Shown here: positions 1,460 to 8,466 of the stretch, piece after piece | Layout: each line of letters begins with the position of its first letter | Position numbering within the stretch: the first letter of the stretch is position 1 | Assembly: GCF_003334255.1 (NCBI RefSeq) | Contig: NZ_QOWU01000067.1 | Source: Escherichia coli | GTDB taxonomy: Bacteria; Pseudomonadota; Gammaproteobacteria; Enterobacterales; Enterobacteriaceae | Length of the DNA: 22,187 nt | Reading direction: 5' to 3' (one strand) | Position numbers and translations under genes: made by a program | Notes under the pieces: generated by a model | What the model saw: only the letters and a program-made list of their open reading frames with translations | What the model was told of the DNA's origin: nothing | Databases searched by the model: none

Positions 1460-2233
1460 TCAGGCGTCGACTTTATCCAGCGGCCATGAATCAAACAGAT
1501 AGCCGTCAAAATAAATATCGTCAACGTTCGAGAATTCCAGCAGACGTTGCTTAACGTTTTCCAGATGCTGCCACATTGCCAGCTTCGCCGCTCGGGCATC
1601 TTTTTTGATTAACGCGGCGAGGATCTGTTTGTGATCGCCCAACCACTCTTTGCGATACAGGCTGTCATCCAGATGGCTGTGCAACTGGATCCACATTGGA
1701 TTGTTTTCCCGCCACTGCCAGGACTGACGGAATAACTCCACCAGCATGCTGTTATGCGTTGCTTCGGCAATAGCGAGATGGAACTGCATATCACCGCTTT
1801 CGCTGCTGCCCGGCGCGCTGGAAGCCAGTTCACGCTCTTCCAGTTGCAATGCCTGACGCATTTTGACGATATCTTCGCGGGTAGCCTGCAAAGCGGCAAA
1901 TTCCGCGATGTTACTTTCCAGTAACTGACGCGCCTGTAACAGCTCAAAAGGACCCGCATCATTACAGACGTTGGCATCCGAACTGTCTGTGTTGTGGCTG
2001 CCTGAGCTATCAAGAACATAGATACCGGCACCCCGGCGCACTTCCACCAGCCCTTTGATCTCCAGCATGATCAGCGCTTCACGTACCACCGTCCGCGTGA
2101 CATCAAGCATTTCTGCAATTTCACGCTCCGGCGGCAGCCGTTCGCCAGGATTGTACGGCGTCTTTATGATCAGATCGCGGATCATCGCCCCGACTTCCTG
2201 GTAAGGTCTTTGCGCAGAGGTGGCAGATTTCAT
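1460..2233 (-). CDS. uxuR: GntR/FadR-family transcriptional repressor of hexuronate utilisation, UxuR (257 aa)
   Basis: Full-length ORF MKSATSAQRPYQEVGAMIRDLI...; N-terminal winged-HTH and C-terminal FCD domain pattern; ATG confirmed at 2233-2231; position downstream of uxuAB. Confidence 0.95.
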   Translation of the reverse strand: MKSATSAQRPYQEVGAMIRDLIIKTPYNPGERLPPEREIAEMLDVTRTVVREALIMLEIKGLVEVRRGAGIYVLDSSGSHNTDSSDANVCNDAGPFELLQARQLLESNIAEFAALQATREDIVKMRQALQLEERELASSAPGSSESGDMQFHLAIAEATHNSMLVELFRQSWQWRENNPMWIQLHSHLDDSLYRKEWLGDHKQILAALIKKDARAAKLAMWQHLENVKQRLLEFSNVDDIYFDGYLFDSWPLDKVDA

Positions 2234-2379: not shown

Positions 2380-2424
2380 AAAAAACGAAAACTGGTCAAC
2401 CAAATATCAGTTTGATTGACCAGT
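2380..2424 (-). terminator. Rho-independent terminator downstream of uxuB
   Basis: Stem ACTGGTCAA (2391-2399) / TTGACCAGT (2416-2424) with an inner CAAA/TTTG pairing; on the minus strand it is followed by TTTCGTTTTTTT (complement of 2380-2390). Lies 24 bp after the uxuB stop. Confidence 0.6.
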
Positions 2425-2447: not shown

Positions 2448-3908
2448 TTACAGCGCAGCCACACACTCGCGCGCACCGCGTTCGCACAGCTGCTGATATG
2501 CCGCCGTCACCGCGCCAACAAAGTCGGCATTCTGCGGCAGATCATCGGCAAAAATACCGCTCAGGCCTAGCAGCGCTTTCACGCGGTCTGCGCCCTGATA
2601 CTGCGCGTTAATCTTCTGGAACTCGGCCAGCATCGGGTCGACCACGTCAATGGCATTACCCTGCTCATCCACGCCCTGGGTGTAACGCATCCAGCCAGCC
2701 ACGCCCAGCGCCAGGTGACGCCAGCTGCCGCCGTTTTGCAGGTGCAGACGCACCGGGTCCAGCAGACGCTGCGGTAACTTCTGGCTGCCGTCCATCGCAA
2801 TCTGCCAGGTACGGTGACGCAGAGACGGGTTGCTGAAACGCTCGATCAGCAGCGTCGCATAGGCGTTCAGGTCCGTACCTTCCGGCATCGACAGCGTTGG
2901 CGCTTGTTCCTGCATCATCAGGGCAAAGGCCGCTTTGCGATAATCCGGGTTAGTCATGGTGTCGGCAATAGTTTCATAGCCGCCGAGGTAACCGAGGTAC
3001 GCCAGGAAAGAGTGGCTACCGTTCAGCATACGCAGCTTCATCATTTCGAACGGCACAACGTCTGCAACGAACTGTGCGCCCACTTTATCCCAGTCCGGGC
3101 GACCATTAACGAAATTATCTTCAATCACCCACTGACGGAACGGTTCGCAGGCAATGGCGCACGGGTCGTAAACGCCCAGCTGGTCAGCAATTTCCTGTAA
3201 GGTTTCTGGCGTCGCCGCCGGAACGATGCGGTCAACCATGGTGCACGGGAAGGTGACGTTCTCTCCAATCCATGCCGCTAGCTGCGGGTCACGCGCCTGA
3301 GCCAGCCCCAGTACCGCGACCTTCGCCACATGACCGTTTTCACGCACGTTATCGCAGGACATCACCGTAAATGCTTTCAGCCCTTTTTCACGACGCAGAC
3401 GCAAGGCTTCGACGATGTAACCAATCGCGGACTTCGGCGCAGTCGGGTTTTCCAGATCGTGCTTGATCAGCGGGTTATTGAGATCCAGTTGACCGCTTGC
3501 CGCATCAGCGCAGTAGCCTTTTTCCGTGACCGTCAGAGAGACAATCGCCGTTTGCGGACGCGCCATCGCGTTGAGAATACCTTCGCAGCCGTCGATTTCC
3601 GGGTGCAGCGCTTCTTTCATCGAACCGATAATTTTCAGCTCGGTGCTTTCCGCGCCTTTTTCCGCCACGGTGTACAGCAGTTGCTGTTTTTTCAGGTTTT
3701 CGATCAGCACGCGGTCGTTGCCTGGCATCAGGTTAACTTCGCAGATACCCCAGTCGCTGTCGGTGCTTTCCAGCAGATGATGGGTGTACAGCGCCTGGTG
3801 CGCACGGTGAAACGCCCCGCAACCGAGATGCACAATGCGTGATTCCAGACGAGAATGATCCCATGACGGGCGGGCAACCGGCAGATTGCTGTCAACAATA
3901 GTAGTCAT
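2448..3908 (-). CDS. uxuB: D-mannonate oxidoreductase (fructuronate reductase), UxuB (486 aa)
   Basis: Full-length ORF MTTIVDSNLPVARPSWDHSRL...; N-terminal Rossmann-type GCGAFHRAH region typical of the mannitol dehydrogenase family; ATG at 3908-3906; directly downstream of uxuA. Confidence 0.95.
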   Translation of the reverse strand: MTTIVDSNLPVARPSWDHSRLESRIVHLGCGAFHRAHQALYTHHLLESTDSDWGICEVNLMPGNDRVLIENLKKQQLLYTVAEKGAESTELKIIGSMKEALHPEIDGCEGILNAMARPQTAIVSLTVTEKGYCADAASGQLDLNNPLIKHDLENPTAPKSAIGYIVEALRLRREKGLKAFTVMSCDNVRENGHVAKVAVLGLAQARDPQLAAWIGENVTFPCTMVDRIVPAATPETLQEIADQLGVYDPCAIACEPFRQWVIEDNFVNGRPDWDKVGAQFVADVVPFEMMKLRMLNGSHSFLAYLGYLGGYETIADTMTNPDYRKAAFALMMQEQAPTLSMPEGTDLNAYATLLIERFSNPSLRHRTWQIAMDGSQKLPQRLLDPVRLHLQNGGSWRHLALGVAGWMRYTQGVDEQGNAIDVVDPMLAEFQKINAQYQGADRVKALLGLSGIFADDLPQNADFVGAVTAAYQQLCERGARECVAAL

Positions 3909-3988: not shown

Positions 3989-5173
3989 TTAACGGCTAAA
4001 GAAAGCGCGCTGGATCGCCAGTTCGACACCGCGAACTTCGGCCAGGCCTTTCAGACGACCAATTGCGGAGTAACCTGGGTTGGTTTTCTTCTTCAGGTCG
4101 TCCAGCATCTGATGACCGTGGTCCGGACGCATCGGGATCAGGTCTTCTTTGCCTTCCGCTTTACGACGGTGTTCTTCTTCAACAATCGCTTTCACCACTT
4201 CGTACATATCAACGTCACCATTCAGGTGCGCCGCTTCGTGGAAGGTTTTCGGGTTATCTTCACGCATGGTGGAGCGCAGATGGGTGAAGTAAATACGCGG
4301 ACCGAACTGCTTGATCATATCAACCAGATCGTTGTCAGCACGCACGCCGTAGGAACCGGTGCACATGGTGAAACCGTTCGCCATGCTATTTACGGTATCA
4401 ACCATCCACTGCATATCTTCAATGGTAGAAACAATGCGCGGCAGGCCGAGGATTGGGCGCGGCGGATCGTCCGGGTGAACAGCCATACGCACGCCAACTT
4501 CTTCGGCAACCGGAATAATCGCCTTCAGGAAGACGGCAAAGTTTTCGCGCAGTTTGGCTTTGTCGATATCTTTGTACAGCTCCAGGTGCTTACGGAACTG
4601 GTCGAGGGTGTACCCTTCTTCCGCGCCCGGCAGACCGGCAATGATGTTACGGGTCAGACGCGCTTTGTCTTCGTCGCTCATAGTGGCGAAGCGTTCAGCT
4701 GCCTGAGCAATTTCTTCTTCGGTGTAATCCGCTTCCGCACCTGGGCGTTTCAGGATATGCATTTCGAATGCAGCGAATTCGATCTGGTCGAAGCGCAGAG
4801 CTTTGGAGCCGTCTGGCAGCACGTATTCGAGGTCAGTACGGGTCCAGTCGAGCACCGGCATGAAGTTGTAGCACACGGTGCGAATACCGCACTGCGCCAG
4901 GTTGCGCAGAGTCTGCTGATAGTTAGCGATCCACTGCTCATAGTTGCCAGTGTGGGTTTTGATATCTTCGTGAATTGGCACGCTTTCTACGACAGACCAC
5001 ACCAGGCCTGCATCTTCAACGATAGCCTTGCGTTTGAGGATCTCTTCTACGGACCATACTTCACCGTTCGGGATATGGTGCAAAGCGGTAACCACGCCAG
5101 TCGCGCCCGCCTGACGGACATCAGCTAAAGAAACCGGATCGTTTGGGCCGTACCAGCGCCAGGTCTGTTCCAT
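3989..5173 (-). CDS. uxuA: D-mannonate dehydratase, UxuA (394 aa)
   Basis: ORF 3989..5209 trimmed to the internal ATG at 5173 ([14 protein letters not shown]...), which is preceded by an AGAGGA Shine-Dalgarno on the minus strand; the longer N-terminal extension has no RBS. Confidence 0.93.
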
Positions 5174-5339
5174 GATTTTTCCTCTTTCACATAGTGGGTT
5201 CCACAGCAAAGAGACGCGGAACCCTGGAGTTGTTTAGGTATCCGGATGAACAACCAGACCGCAGCCGTGGCGTTGCATCGGATGAGATGGCGTATAAGTT
5301 CTACCTTTTGGTAAGACATGTCAACCCGAATTCTGAAAT

Positions 5340-5349
5340 TGGTTAACCA
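5340..5349. promoter_or_regulatory. Candidate UxuR/ExuR operator (TGGT-N2-ACCA palindrome) in the uxuA-gntP divergent region
   Basis: Perfect palindrome TGGTTAACCA embedded in AAATTGGTTAACCAC; FadR-subfamily GntR regulators bind TGGT..ACCA-type palindromes, and uxuAB and gntP are UxuR-regulated. Motif assignment is from memory, not a PWM scan. Confidence 0.45.
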
Positions 5350-5425
5350 CATCACAAGAATTTCACTCTCCTGGTTGTTGCTGCAAATTGCAGCAAAAGG
5401 TAATCGATGGTTATTGATCAGAGGA

Positions 5426-5441
5426 TGTGACATTCATCGCA
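5426..5441. promoter_or_regulatory. Candidate CRP binding site
   Basis: TGTGAcattcaTCGCA matches the CRP consensus TGTGA-N6-TCACA in 9 of 10 core positions; sits in the divergent uxuA/gntP promoter region, both of which are catabolite-controlled. Confidence 0.4.
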
Positions 5442-5444
5442 ACA

Positions 5445-5456
5445 ATGGTTGACCAA
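5445..5456. promoter_or_regulatory. Second candidate UxuR/ExuR operator (ATGGTTGACCAA)
   Basis: TGGTTGACCA has the same TGGT-N2-ACCA geometry as the site at 5340-5349; lies about 60 bp upstream of the gntP ATG. Confidence 0.4.
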
Positions 5457-5512
5457 TTTACATAACATGTCGCCCAAAATAACAACGGTTCAACCAGGTA
5501 AGGTAAAACGTT

Positions 5513-6856
5513 ATGCATGTGCTTAACATTCTCTGGGTGGTATTCGGCATTGGTCTGATGCTGGTACTGAATTTGAAGTTCAAAATCAATTCAATGGTGG
5601 CCTTGTTGGTGGCGGCGCTGTCCGTCGGGATGCTGGCGGGCATGGATTTGATGTCGCTGCTGCACACCATGAAAGCGGGCTTCGGCAACACGCTGGGGGA
5701 ACTGGCTATCATCGTGGTGTTCGGTGCGGTCATCGGTAAATTGATGGTCGACTCCGGCGCGGCTCACCAGATAGCGCATACGCTGCTGGCACGTCTCGGT
5801 CTGCGTTATGTACAGCTGTCGGTGATTATCATCGGCCTGATTTTCGGTCTGGCGATGTTCTATGAAGTGGCCTTTATCATGTTAGCACCGCTGGTTATTG
5901 TTATTGCCGCCGAAGCTAAAATTCCGTTCCTGAAACTGGCGATCCCGGCAGTAGCAGCTGCCACTACCGCACATTCACTGTTCCCACCGCAGCCGGGTCC
6001 GGTGGCGCTGGTGAATGCTTATGGCGCGGATATGGGGATGGTTTATATCTATGGCGTACTGGTGACGATCCCAAGTGTCATCTGCGCAGGTCTGATCCTG
6101 CCGAAGTTCCTCGGCAATCTTGAGCGCCCAACGCCATCATTCCTGAAAGCAGATCAACCGGTAGATATGAATAATCTGCCCTCTTTCGGCGTTTCGATTC
6201 TGGTGCCGTTGATCCCGGCGATCATTATGATCTCTACCACCATCGCCAATATCTGGCTGGTAAAAGATACCCCTGCGTGGGAAGTGGTTAACTTTATCGG
6301 TTCCTCGCCGATTGCAATGTTTATTGCGATGGTGGTTGCATTCGTACTCTTTGGCACCGCGCGCGGGCACGATATGCAGTGGGTAATGAACGCTTTTGAA
6401 AGCGCGGTGAAAAGCATTGCAATGGTGATTCTGATCATCGGTGCAGGTGGCGTGCTGAAGCAGACCATCATCGACACCGGCATCGGCGACACCATCGGCA
6501 TGCTGATGTCCCACGGCAATATCTCGCCCTACATCATGGCATGGCTGATCACCGTACTGATTCGTCTGGCGACGGGTCAGGGTGTGGTTTCAGCGATGAC
6601 CGCCGCCGGGATTATCAGTGCAGCAATCCTTGATCCAGCAACTGGTCAGCTGGTTGGCGTGAATCCGGCGCTGCTGGTACTGGCGACGGCTGCGGGTTCC
6701 AACACCCTCACCCACATTAACGATGCCTCATTCTGGTTGTTCAAAGGTTACTTTGACCTGTCAGTAAAAGACACGTTGAAAACCTGGGGTCTGCTGGAGC
6801 TGGTCAACTCCGTGGTTGGGCTGATTATTGTGCTGATTATTAGCATGGTAGCGTAA
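5513..6856 (+). CDS. gntP: GntP-family gluconate/fructuronate:H+ permease (447 aa)
   Basis: Full-length, highly hydrophobic multi-helix [26 protein letters not shown]...; ATG at 5513; divergent from uxuA and adjacent to fimH as in E. coli. Confidence 0.93.
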
Positions 6857-7950: not shown

Positions 7951-8454
7951 TCAGCTGTAGGTATAGGTGATGCTAATCACTGCCTGAATGGTTCCCTGAG
8001 TGGCTCCGCCATTTACCGTCAATGCTCTGACCTGTAACGGGAAGTGCGCTGATTGTGAGGAATCATCCACCTGAACTGTTTTGGTTGCGCCACTATTCAA
8101 TGTGTTGCCACTGTCATCCTGTAGCTCTAACTGGATGTTTTGCGCGGTCCCCTGGTTTTTATAATATCCGGTACTGTCGGCTGCCCCGCTGAAGCTGGCA
8201 GTGACCCTCGACGTTCCCACCGGACAATTAGTCAACTCAAGCGCAACATCATGCCAGGCCGATGCCGCCCCGGCAGACATCAGACTGAAAGAATAAAGAT
8301 CGCCGAGATCTACCGTGGCATTGGTGGTGGAAACCGTGCACGGTTTGGCGACGACCTTACCGTTCACCGTGATGGTGACATCGGCTGCCTGTATCGTCGC
8401 ACTTGCGAGCGCCAATATTGCCGCCAATACATACCCACGTTTGCACCATTTCAT
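7951..8454 (-). CDS. fimG: Type 1 fimbrial minor subunit FimG (167 aa)
   Basis: ORF trimmed to the ATG at 8454 (MKWCKRGYVLAAILALASATIQAADVTITV...); pilin fold with signal peptide; between fimF and fimH. Confidence 0.93.
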   Translation of the reverse strand: MKWCKRGYVLAAILALASATIQAADVTITVNGKVVAKPCTVSTTNATVDLGDLYSFSLMSAGAASAWHDVALELTNCPVGTSRVTASFSGAADSTGYYKNQGTAQNIQLELQDDSGNTLNSGATKTVQVDDSSQSAHFPLQVRALTVNGGATQGTIQAVISITYTYS

Positions 8455-8466
8455 GAGCATCTCCAG

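Follow-up and report, generated by a model that had tools for sequence, protein, structure and literature searches.

The stretch of DNA analysed here (the window, 22,187 nt, NZ_QOWU01000067.1) is part of an Escherichia coli chromosome and contains the hexuronate genes in the order uxuR-uxuB-uxuA / gntP-fimH, which is identical to that of K-12. The start codons of uxuA (ATG at 5173, minus strand) and of the divergently read gntP (ATG at 5513) leave a spacer of 339 bp between them, and both the RefSeq annotation and the K-12 gene order bear out the gene identities and the divergent spacer proposed in a preliminary description of this DNA. The spacer is 100% identical to that of strain 300709, occurs in all but 21 of the 5426 complete E. 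coli genomes (5405), and differs from that of K-12 at three positions, all of them outside the motifs described below. The features of the region are collected in Table 1.

Table 1. Genes, promoters, protein-binding sites and conservation segments in and around the uxuA/gntP control region. Invariant columns are counted in the Escherichia/Citrobacter alignment; tiles are 30 bases long.
Feature	Position	Strand	Sequence or remark	Basis	Invariant columns
uxuR, GntR/FadR-family repressor acting on UxuR/ExuR operators	1460-2233	-		RefSeq annotation of matching region	
Third UxuR/ExuR operator, uxuB/uxuR spacer	2389-2406		AAACTGGTCAACCAAATA	Matrix score 17.8, rank 2	
uxuB	2448-3908	-		RefSeq annotation of matching region	
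uxuA, D-mannonate dehydratase	3989-5173	-		RefSeq annotation of matching region	
Divergent control region, 339 bp	5174-5512		uxuA (minus)/gntP (plus) spacer		
uxuA core promoter	5291-5324	-	TSS 5291	TSS from Table S4 CRP positions	23/29
Putative conserved half-site, uxuA promoter spacer	5305-5322		TTTTGGTA	31 bp from operator 1 centre	
Tile, operator 1 and CRP site 2	5331-5360		Identical in 3787 genomes		
UxuR/ExuR operator 1	5336-5353		AAATTGGTTAACCACATC; core TGGTTAACCA, 5340-5349	Matrix and conservation	10/10 (core)
CRP site 2	5341-5356		GGTTAACCACATCACA; minus strand TGTGATGTGGTTAACC	Matrix and RegulonDB-derived Table S4	13/16
DNA between modules	5358-5424				4/67
Tile, between modules	5361-5390		Identical in 2329 genomes		
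Tile, between modules	5391-5420		Identical in 580 genomes		
CRP site 1	5426-5441		TGTGACATTCATCGCA; TGTGA-N6-TCGCA	Matrix and published CRP tables	12/16 (changes within central N6; both pentamers unchanged in 7/7 sequences)
Tile, CRP site 1 and operator 2 core	5426-5455		Identical in 5277/5405 genomes		
UxuR/ExuR operator 2	5442-5459		ACAATGGTTGACCAATTT; core TGGTTGACCA, 5446-5455	Matrix and conservation	9/10 (core)
gntP -10-like hexamer and TSS	5463-5475	+	TAACAT (5463-5468); TSS 5475	Hexamer inferred from sequence	
Putative weak operator-like half-site	5483-5500		GGTTCAACCA, 5487-5496	About +12 to +22 of gntP	
gntP, fructuronate transporter	5513-6856	+		RefSeq annotation of matching region	

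The spacer contains two palindromes. The first, TGGTTAACCA, is a perfect 10-bp palindrome at exactly the place where it had been described, and the second, TGGTTGACCA, had been placed at 5445-5456 and needs its coordinates corrected to those of Table 1. In the second, the TGGT and ACCA arms are perfect and the central TG is not self-complementary, so that it is palindromic in the arms only. The pattern that they share, TGGTNNACCA, occurs three times in the 22-kb window against an expectation of 0.28, and none of 100 shuffled sequences reaches three; two copies lie in the uxuA/gntP spacer and the third (2393-2402) lies in the spacer between uxuB and uxuR.

To score these sites we used a matrix obtained by a palindromic expectation-maximisation search of eight other spacers of the K-12 hexuronate regulon (uxaC/exuT, exuT/exuR, uxaB, uidA, uidR, lgoT/lgoR, lgoR/lgoD and uxuB/uxuR), with the uxuA/gntP spacer left out. 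The search converged from many seeds on AAATTGGTTAACCAATTT, which agrees with the UxuR site of a published biosensor, AAATTGGTATACCAATTT (PMC8092373). With this matrix, operator 1 scores 19.9 and is the best match in the window (95th percentile of the null maximum, 15.7). Operator 2, with a score of 10.9, is the fourth-best match in the window and the second-best within the spacer; taken alone, this score is not significant window-wide, where 2.6 hits of at least 10 are expected in 22 kb, and the site combines a perfect TGGT-N2-ACCA core with a perfect right flank, ACCAATTT. The matrix scan thus returns the same two palindromes that had been picked out from the letters. Both have the 18-bp form AAATTGGTnnACCAATTT with its TGGT-N2-ACCA core, both lie in a control region of the pathway (uxuA/gntP, with uxuB and uxuR downstream), and related genomes keep both at the orthologous position. 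The score of the third operator is not independent because the matrix was trained on a set that included its K-12 copy; a site for uxuR autoregulation would be expected at this position. The same uxuB/uxuR spacer also holds a weaker operator-like sequence, AGTTTGATTGACCAGTAA (2409-2426, score 7.8), 20 bp from the third operator, and a REP-like element, GCCGGATGCGGCGTGAACGCCTTATCCGGCCTAC (2271-2304).

Two weaker sites accompany the full operators. The putative half-site on the gntP side is 41 bp from the centre of operator 2 and scores 5.1, but the homologous place in Citrobacter scores 10.5-13.5, and the block from 5473 to 5496 has 15 of 24 columns invariant in the Escherichia/Citrobacter alignment. 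Within it, the sequence CGGTTCAACCA (5486-5496) resembles TGGT-N3-ACCA, unlike the N2 spacing of UxuR sites, and one of its arms, TCAACCA, complements the left half of operator 2. Its homologue is a perfect TGGTTCAACCA in Citrobacter werkmanii and Citrobacter sp. FP75. An N3 spacing recalls the boxes of PdhR and FadR. The putative half-site in the uxuA promoter is kept in Citrobacter, and Cedecea, Enterobacter sp. Ag1 and Shimwellia have AATTGG half-sites at this position. As a third full operator of the spacer this site was rejected (score 1.7, window rank 105), and we consider it a conserved half-site only.

The preliminary description had also named a CRP-like box, here CRP site 1. Specifically, the pattern TGTGA-N6-TCRCA has one match in the window against 0.12 expected; as a pattern alone this is weak, since 10 of 100 shuffles contain at least one match, and the site gains weight from its matrix rank, its conservation and published binding data. 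In a matrix built from 106 sites under ChIP-seq peaks of ETEC H10407, with the gntP/uxuA entry left out (PMC4287617), it scores 14.2 and ranks first in the window (median of real sites 12.75, n=106). The ETEC H10407 peak between gntP and uxuA is assigned the site TGCGATGAATGTCACA (PMC4287617), the exact reverse complement of 5426-5441, and a K-12 CRP SELEX-chip table gives the sequence of CRP site 1 for gntP/uxuAB, in a paper whose text speaks of multiple CRP sites in the spacer (PMC3105977); the box is supported both by its rank and by identical sequences in the ChIP-seq and SELEX tables, which report binding in vivo and in vitro. CRP site 2, absent from the preliminary description, overlaps operator 1 and scores 10.6, which is fourth in the window and near the 25th percentile for real sites, so that both boxes score within the range of real cAMP-CRP sites. 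The second-best match to the CRP matrix in the window is GGTGATGCTAATCACT (7966-7981, score 12.4), which lies just inside the 5' end of a fimbrial-subunit open reading frame (7951-8460, minus strand; fimG by position), next to the start of fimH.

The positions of the two promoters can be derived from the same literature. A Table S4 with RegulonDB identifiers lists CRP sites at -41.5 and -126.5 of gntP and at -57.5 and -142.5 of uxuAB (PMC3105977), and these four positions are mutually consistent and place the transcription start sites (TSSs) of gntP and uxuA at 5475 and 5291, respectively. On these coordinates, which come from a RegulonDB-derived table, CRP site 1 would be at -41.5 of gntP, a class II position, and at -142.5 of uxuAB, and CRP site 2 at -57.5 of uxuAB, off the usual class I register, and at -126.5 of gntP. 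With CRP site 1 at -41.5, operator 2 is centred (5450.5) at -24.5, which puts it within the core promoter of gntP, in the gap from -35 to -10. Operator 1 is centred (5344.5) at -53.5 from the uxuA TSS and at -130.5 from that of gntP. The earlier suggestion of one operator nearer each promoter therefore holds for operator 2, which lies in the gntP core, and has to be modified for operator 1, which lies upstream of the uxuA core. Likewise, CRP site 1 and operator 2 do stand together at the gntP promoter as suggested, but they do not overlap; the 16-mer and the 18-mer abut at 5441/5442.

The core elements themselves are poor. The gntP -10-like hexamer is kept in Citrobacter and reads TAACGT in L007 (E. 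coli SCPM-O-B-8794) only. The uxuA promoter has a perfect -35 hexamer, TTGACA (5324 to 5319 on the minus strand), and a poor -10 region, for which either TAGAAC (5303 to 5298) or GAACTT (5301 to 5296) may be read. A simple sigma-70 and terminator scan of 5100-5600 found no promoter and no terminator; with no sigma-70 match the core elements must be regarded as poor, and their placement rests on the TSSs of a secondary table. The empty scan fits weak, activator-dependent promoters and lends them no positive support.

Other parts of the spacer carry structure of a different kind. The 121-nt uxuA leader is predicted to form two hairpins, one of which, GGGUUCC-N15-GGAACCC, lies just 5' of the ribosome-binding site; the fold has -38.1 kcal/mol (z = -2.3), a stability reached by 3 of 200 shuffled sequences. 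A stretch of about 80-85 bp of the leader (5178-5262, minus strand) is present in Escherichia and absent in Citrobacter. The idea that it is a mobile repeat was rejected on finding a single copy per genome, and an Rfam scan of 5000-5700 gave no match at E <= 1. Midway between the divergent promoters, at about -88 of gntP and -96 of uxuA, lies TTGCTGCAA-A-TTGCAGCAA (5378-5396), an inverted repeat whose two 9-nt arms match perfectly around a single central nucleotide. E. coli has the repeat, E. albertii has a copy with one mismatch, L007 and E. coli 6EVA have decayed versions, and Citrobacter lacks it.

It is informative to examine the motifs in light of their conservation. A UxuA-based scan with one genome per species yielded 80 loci, among which a divergent gntP stands beside uxuA only in E. 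albertii and four Citrobacter genomes, and hence the footprint on the gntP side rests on two genera. In an alignment of seven Escherichia and Citrobacter spacers, the operators and CRP sites are conserved islands in otherwise diverged DNA (Table 1). On the uxuA side the comparison extends further. A site like operator 1 precedes uxuA in Enterobacter sp. R1, Cedecea, Enterobacter sp. Ag1, Shimwellia, Erwinia psidii and a locus labelled Klebsiella sp. BIGb0407, and about 15 bp past it stands TTGACA, replaced by TTGATA in Erwinia psidii. TGTGAT lies directly against the operator in Citrobacter, Cedecea, Enterobacter sp. R1, Enterobacter sp. Ag1, Erwinia psidii and Providencia, with Shimwellia and the BIGb0407 locus as exceptions. 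Within E. coli, 30-base tiles were compared among the 5405 genomes with the spacer by counting those that have an identical copy (Table 1), and in three variant genomes that were checked the changes near operator 1 all lie outside the 18-mer.

Two further observations concern the genes that flank such control regions. In E. coli SCPM-O-B-8794 and 6EVA (L089), the control region is kept in full, CRP box, operator 2 and gntP promoter included, divergence begins just before the gntP start (window position 5497 onward), and gntP was neither found nor annotated there; the gntP promoter therefore appears orphaned in some lineages. In addition, a uxuA locus of a second type, whose protein identity is about 76-79%, is found in many Enterobacteriaceae, and in some Citrobacter it is a second copy. 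The layout is another one here. Loci of this type (including L025, L027-L029, L032-L033, L035, L037, L042, L045, L047 and L058-L063) have an operator AATTTGGTATAACAACTT about 22-27 bp and a CRP-like TGTGAGCTGGATCAAT about 104-108 bp before the start codon.

Published work on the repressor agrees with this picture. In genomic SELEX with purified UxuR, the main peak lies in the gntP/uxuA spacer and is weakened by glucuronate; the resolution is that of the spacer and not of the individual palindromes, and a figure legend in the same paper speaks of two UxuR sites within the operon (PMC5934670). Deletion of uxuR derepresses gntP and uxuAB in RNA-seq and proteomic data (PMC10016265; PMC9369180), and in a synthetic promoter a consensus operator placed between -35 and -10 confers repression by UxuR that is relieved by fructuronate (PMC8092373). 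One of these papers cites Blanco, Ritzenthaler and Kolb 1986 for the uxuAB regulatory region (PMC9369180). Taken together, independent matrices, conservation and published binding data support the shared UxuR/ExuR and cAMP-CRP module that the preliminary description had proposed. The region is almost certainly the known uxuAB-gntP switch of E. coli and in that sense ordinary: it has been studied since the 1980s, both CRP sites are already in RegulonDB, and gntP was reportedly assigned to the UxuR regulon in 2004.

How might such a switch work? Without fructuronate or glucuronate, UxuR would occupy the two 18-bp operators, to which its paralogue ExuR, with the same motif, could also bind. At gntP, operator 2 lies between the -35 and -10 elements and repressor bound there should block RNA polymerase directly. 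At uxuA, operator 1 lies outside the core promoter and overlaps CRP site 2, and repression most likely works by excluding the activator or its contact with the polymerase; exclusion of CRP would be the most economical mechanism. The assignment of operators to promoters and the mode of repression at each are inferred. Activation by cAMP-CRP would be of class II at gntP, from CRP site 1, and class I-like at uxuAB, from CRP site 2. With poor core elements, dependence on cAMP-CRP and a repressor, both promoters would be expressed only when inducer is present and glucose is absent.

It is also worth considering whether the two operators act together. Their centres stand 106 bp apart in three lineages of Escherichia and 104-105 bp apart in four of Citrobacter, or about 10 helical turns, and UxuR, or UxuR with ExuR, might bridge the pair through a loop of about 105 bp, repressing both promoters and trapping CRP site 1. 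This would extend the explanation given above and not replace it. The spacing is kept even though the intervening DNA is almost unalignable. Two strong sites separated by 102-105 bp are also found before uxuA in Enterobacter sp. R1, Cedecea, Enterobacter sp. Ag1 and Erwinia psidii; here the partner lies downstream near the start codon, a different layout with the same spacing. Auxiliary sites of lower strength are seen repeatedly at distances of 31-32 and 41 bp, about three and four helical turns, and the distances as a whole are compatible with helical phasing. However, UxuR is described as a homodimer (PMC8092373), and tetramers are not reported in the literature examined; the comparison covers a small number of lineages that are not independent; Providencia and the BIGb0407 locus have spacings of 111-112 bp; and a constant length may merely reflect the rarity of insertions and deletions or the needs of two promoters. 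We therefore hold the loop itself to be a tentative idea that is probably not correct. Because the spacing is kept despite divergence and recurs in another layout, a loop or some other cooperative two-operator complex of UxuR, with or without ExuR, is possible as a coupling of the uxuA and gntP promoters, speculative as this is, perhaps with help from the conserved half-sites that lie 31 and 41 bp away from the full operators.

A separate question is which protein sits on the palindromes. ExuR and UxuR have a binding motif in common, cross-regulate and possibly form heterodimers (PMC11806353; PMC9369180), and sequence does not distinguish them here because spacers of both regulons (exuT, uxaB, exuR, uidA and uxuR) went into the motif. 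ExuR, or an ExuR-UxuR heterodimer, could accordingly be the main occupant of one or both sites in place of a UxuR homodimer. Yet purified UxuR alone selects the spacer in SELEX (PMC5934670), and in a proteomic study deletion of uxuR strongly raises UxuA, whereas deletion of exuR does not significantly change the detected proteome (PMC9369180). We judge a dominant role for ExuR to be improbable, and the UxuR homodimer remains our preferred occupant.

Even less can be said for reading operator 2 as DNA for an activator. A third gntP CRP site, GGTTGACCAATTTACA (5447-5462), is entered in Table S4 as an activator site at -20.5 (PMC3105977), but its CRP matrix score is -2.3, a value equalled or exceeded at about 2.5% of window positions, an activator centred there would sit on the core promoter, and the perfect core and right flank mark the sequence as a good repressor operator. 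We rejected this RegulonDB-derived CRP site, and regard its being the true function of the DNA as very improbable. That the palindromes are functionless chance matches can be dismissed with near certainty, common as short palindromes are and insignificant as operator 2 is by itself across the window, given that all three copies of the pattern (0.28 expected) lie in uxu control spacers, that the cores are invariant across genera amid diverged DNA, and that protein binding has been published (PMC5934670; PMC4287617; PMC3105977).

As a discovery these results carry little weight, since the region has long been known; they are of use as a positive control, in which a reading of the raw sequence recovered a real repressor-plus-activator module. 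If looping were true, it would add mechanistic detail on how a GntR/FadR-family repressor co-regulates divergent promoters and would bear on the design of UxuR-based fructuronate biosensors.

A precedent for a loop is the gal operon, in which the operators OE and OI lie about 10-11 helical turns apart around CRP-dependent promoters, looping is proven, and the repressor, GalR, belongs to the LacI family. Cedecea, Erwinia and Enterobacter sp. R1, whose operators lie at about -53 and +50, have a layout that resembles OE and OI. In contrast to gal, looping by UxuR is hypothetical, and in E. coli the partner operator is upstream, in the gntP promoter. The gntP promoter also appears to follow the plan of class II CRP promoters, with a 16-bp TGTGA-N6-TCGCA at the tabulated position -41.5 in place of a good -35 element, and -41.5 was the commonest CRP position in the ETEC ChIP-seq study (PMC4287617). 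Unlike such promoters, it has a repressor operator immediately downstream, and its CRP site stands also at -142.5 of uxuAB. The geometry of operator 2 is the same as that of the synthetic promoter Upro, in which the operator likewise lies between -35 and -10, although Upro has a consensus operator and strong core hexamers and does not depend on CRP (PMC8092373). The other hexuronate (Ashwell pathway) operators of E. coli, at uidR, uidA, uxuR, exuR, uxaB and uxaC/exuT, have the same 18-bp AAATTGGTnnACCAATTT with the TGGT-N2-ACCA core; the regulators, inducers and pathway are identical, and the uxuA/gntP locus is listed among the members of that regulon. Nothing essential differs from these; the locus stands out in having two full operators for two divergent promoters, and in that a CRP site, and not the core promoter, is what operator 1 overlaps.
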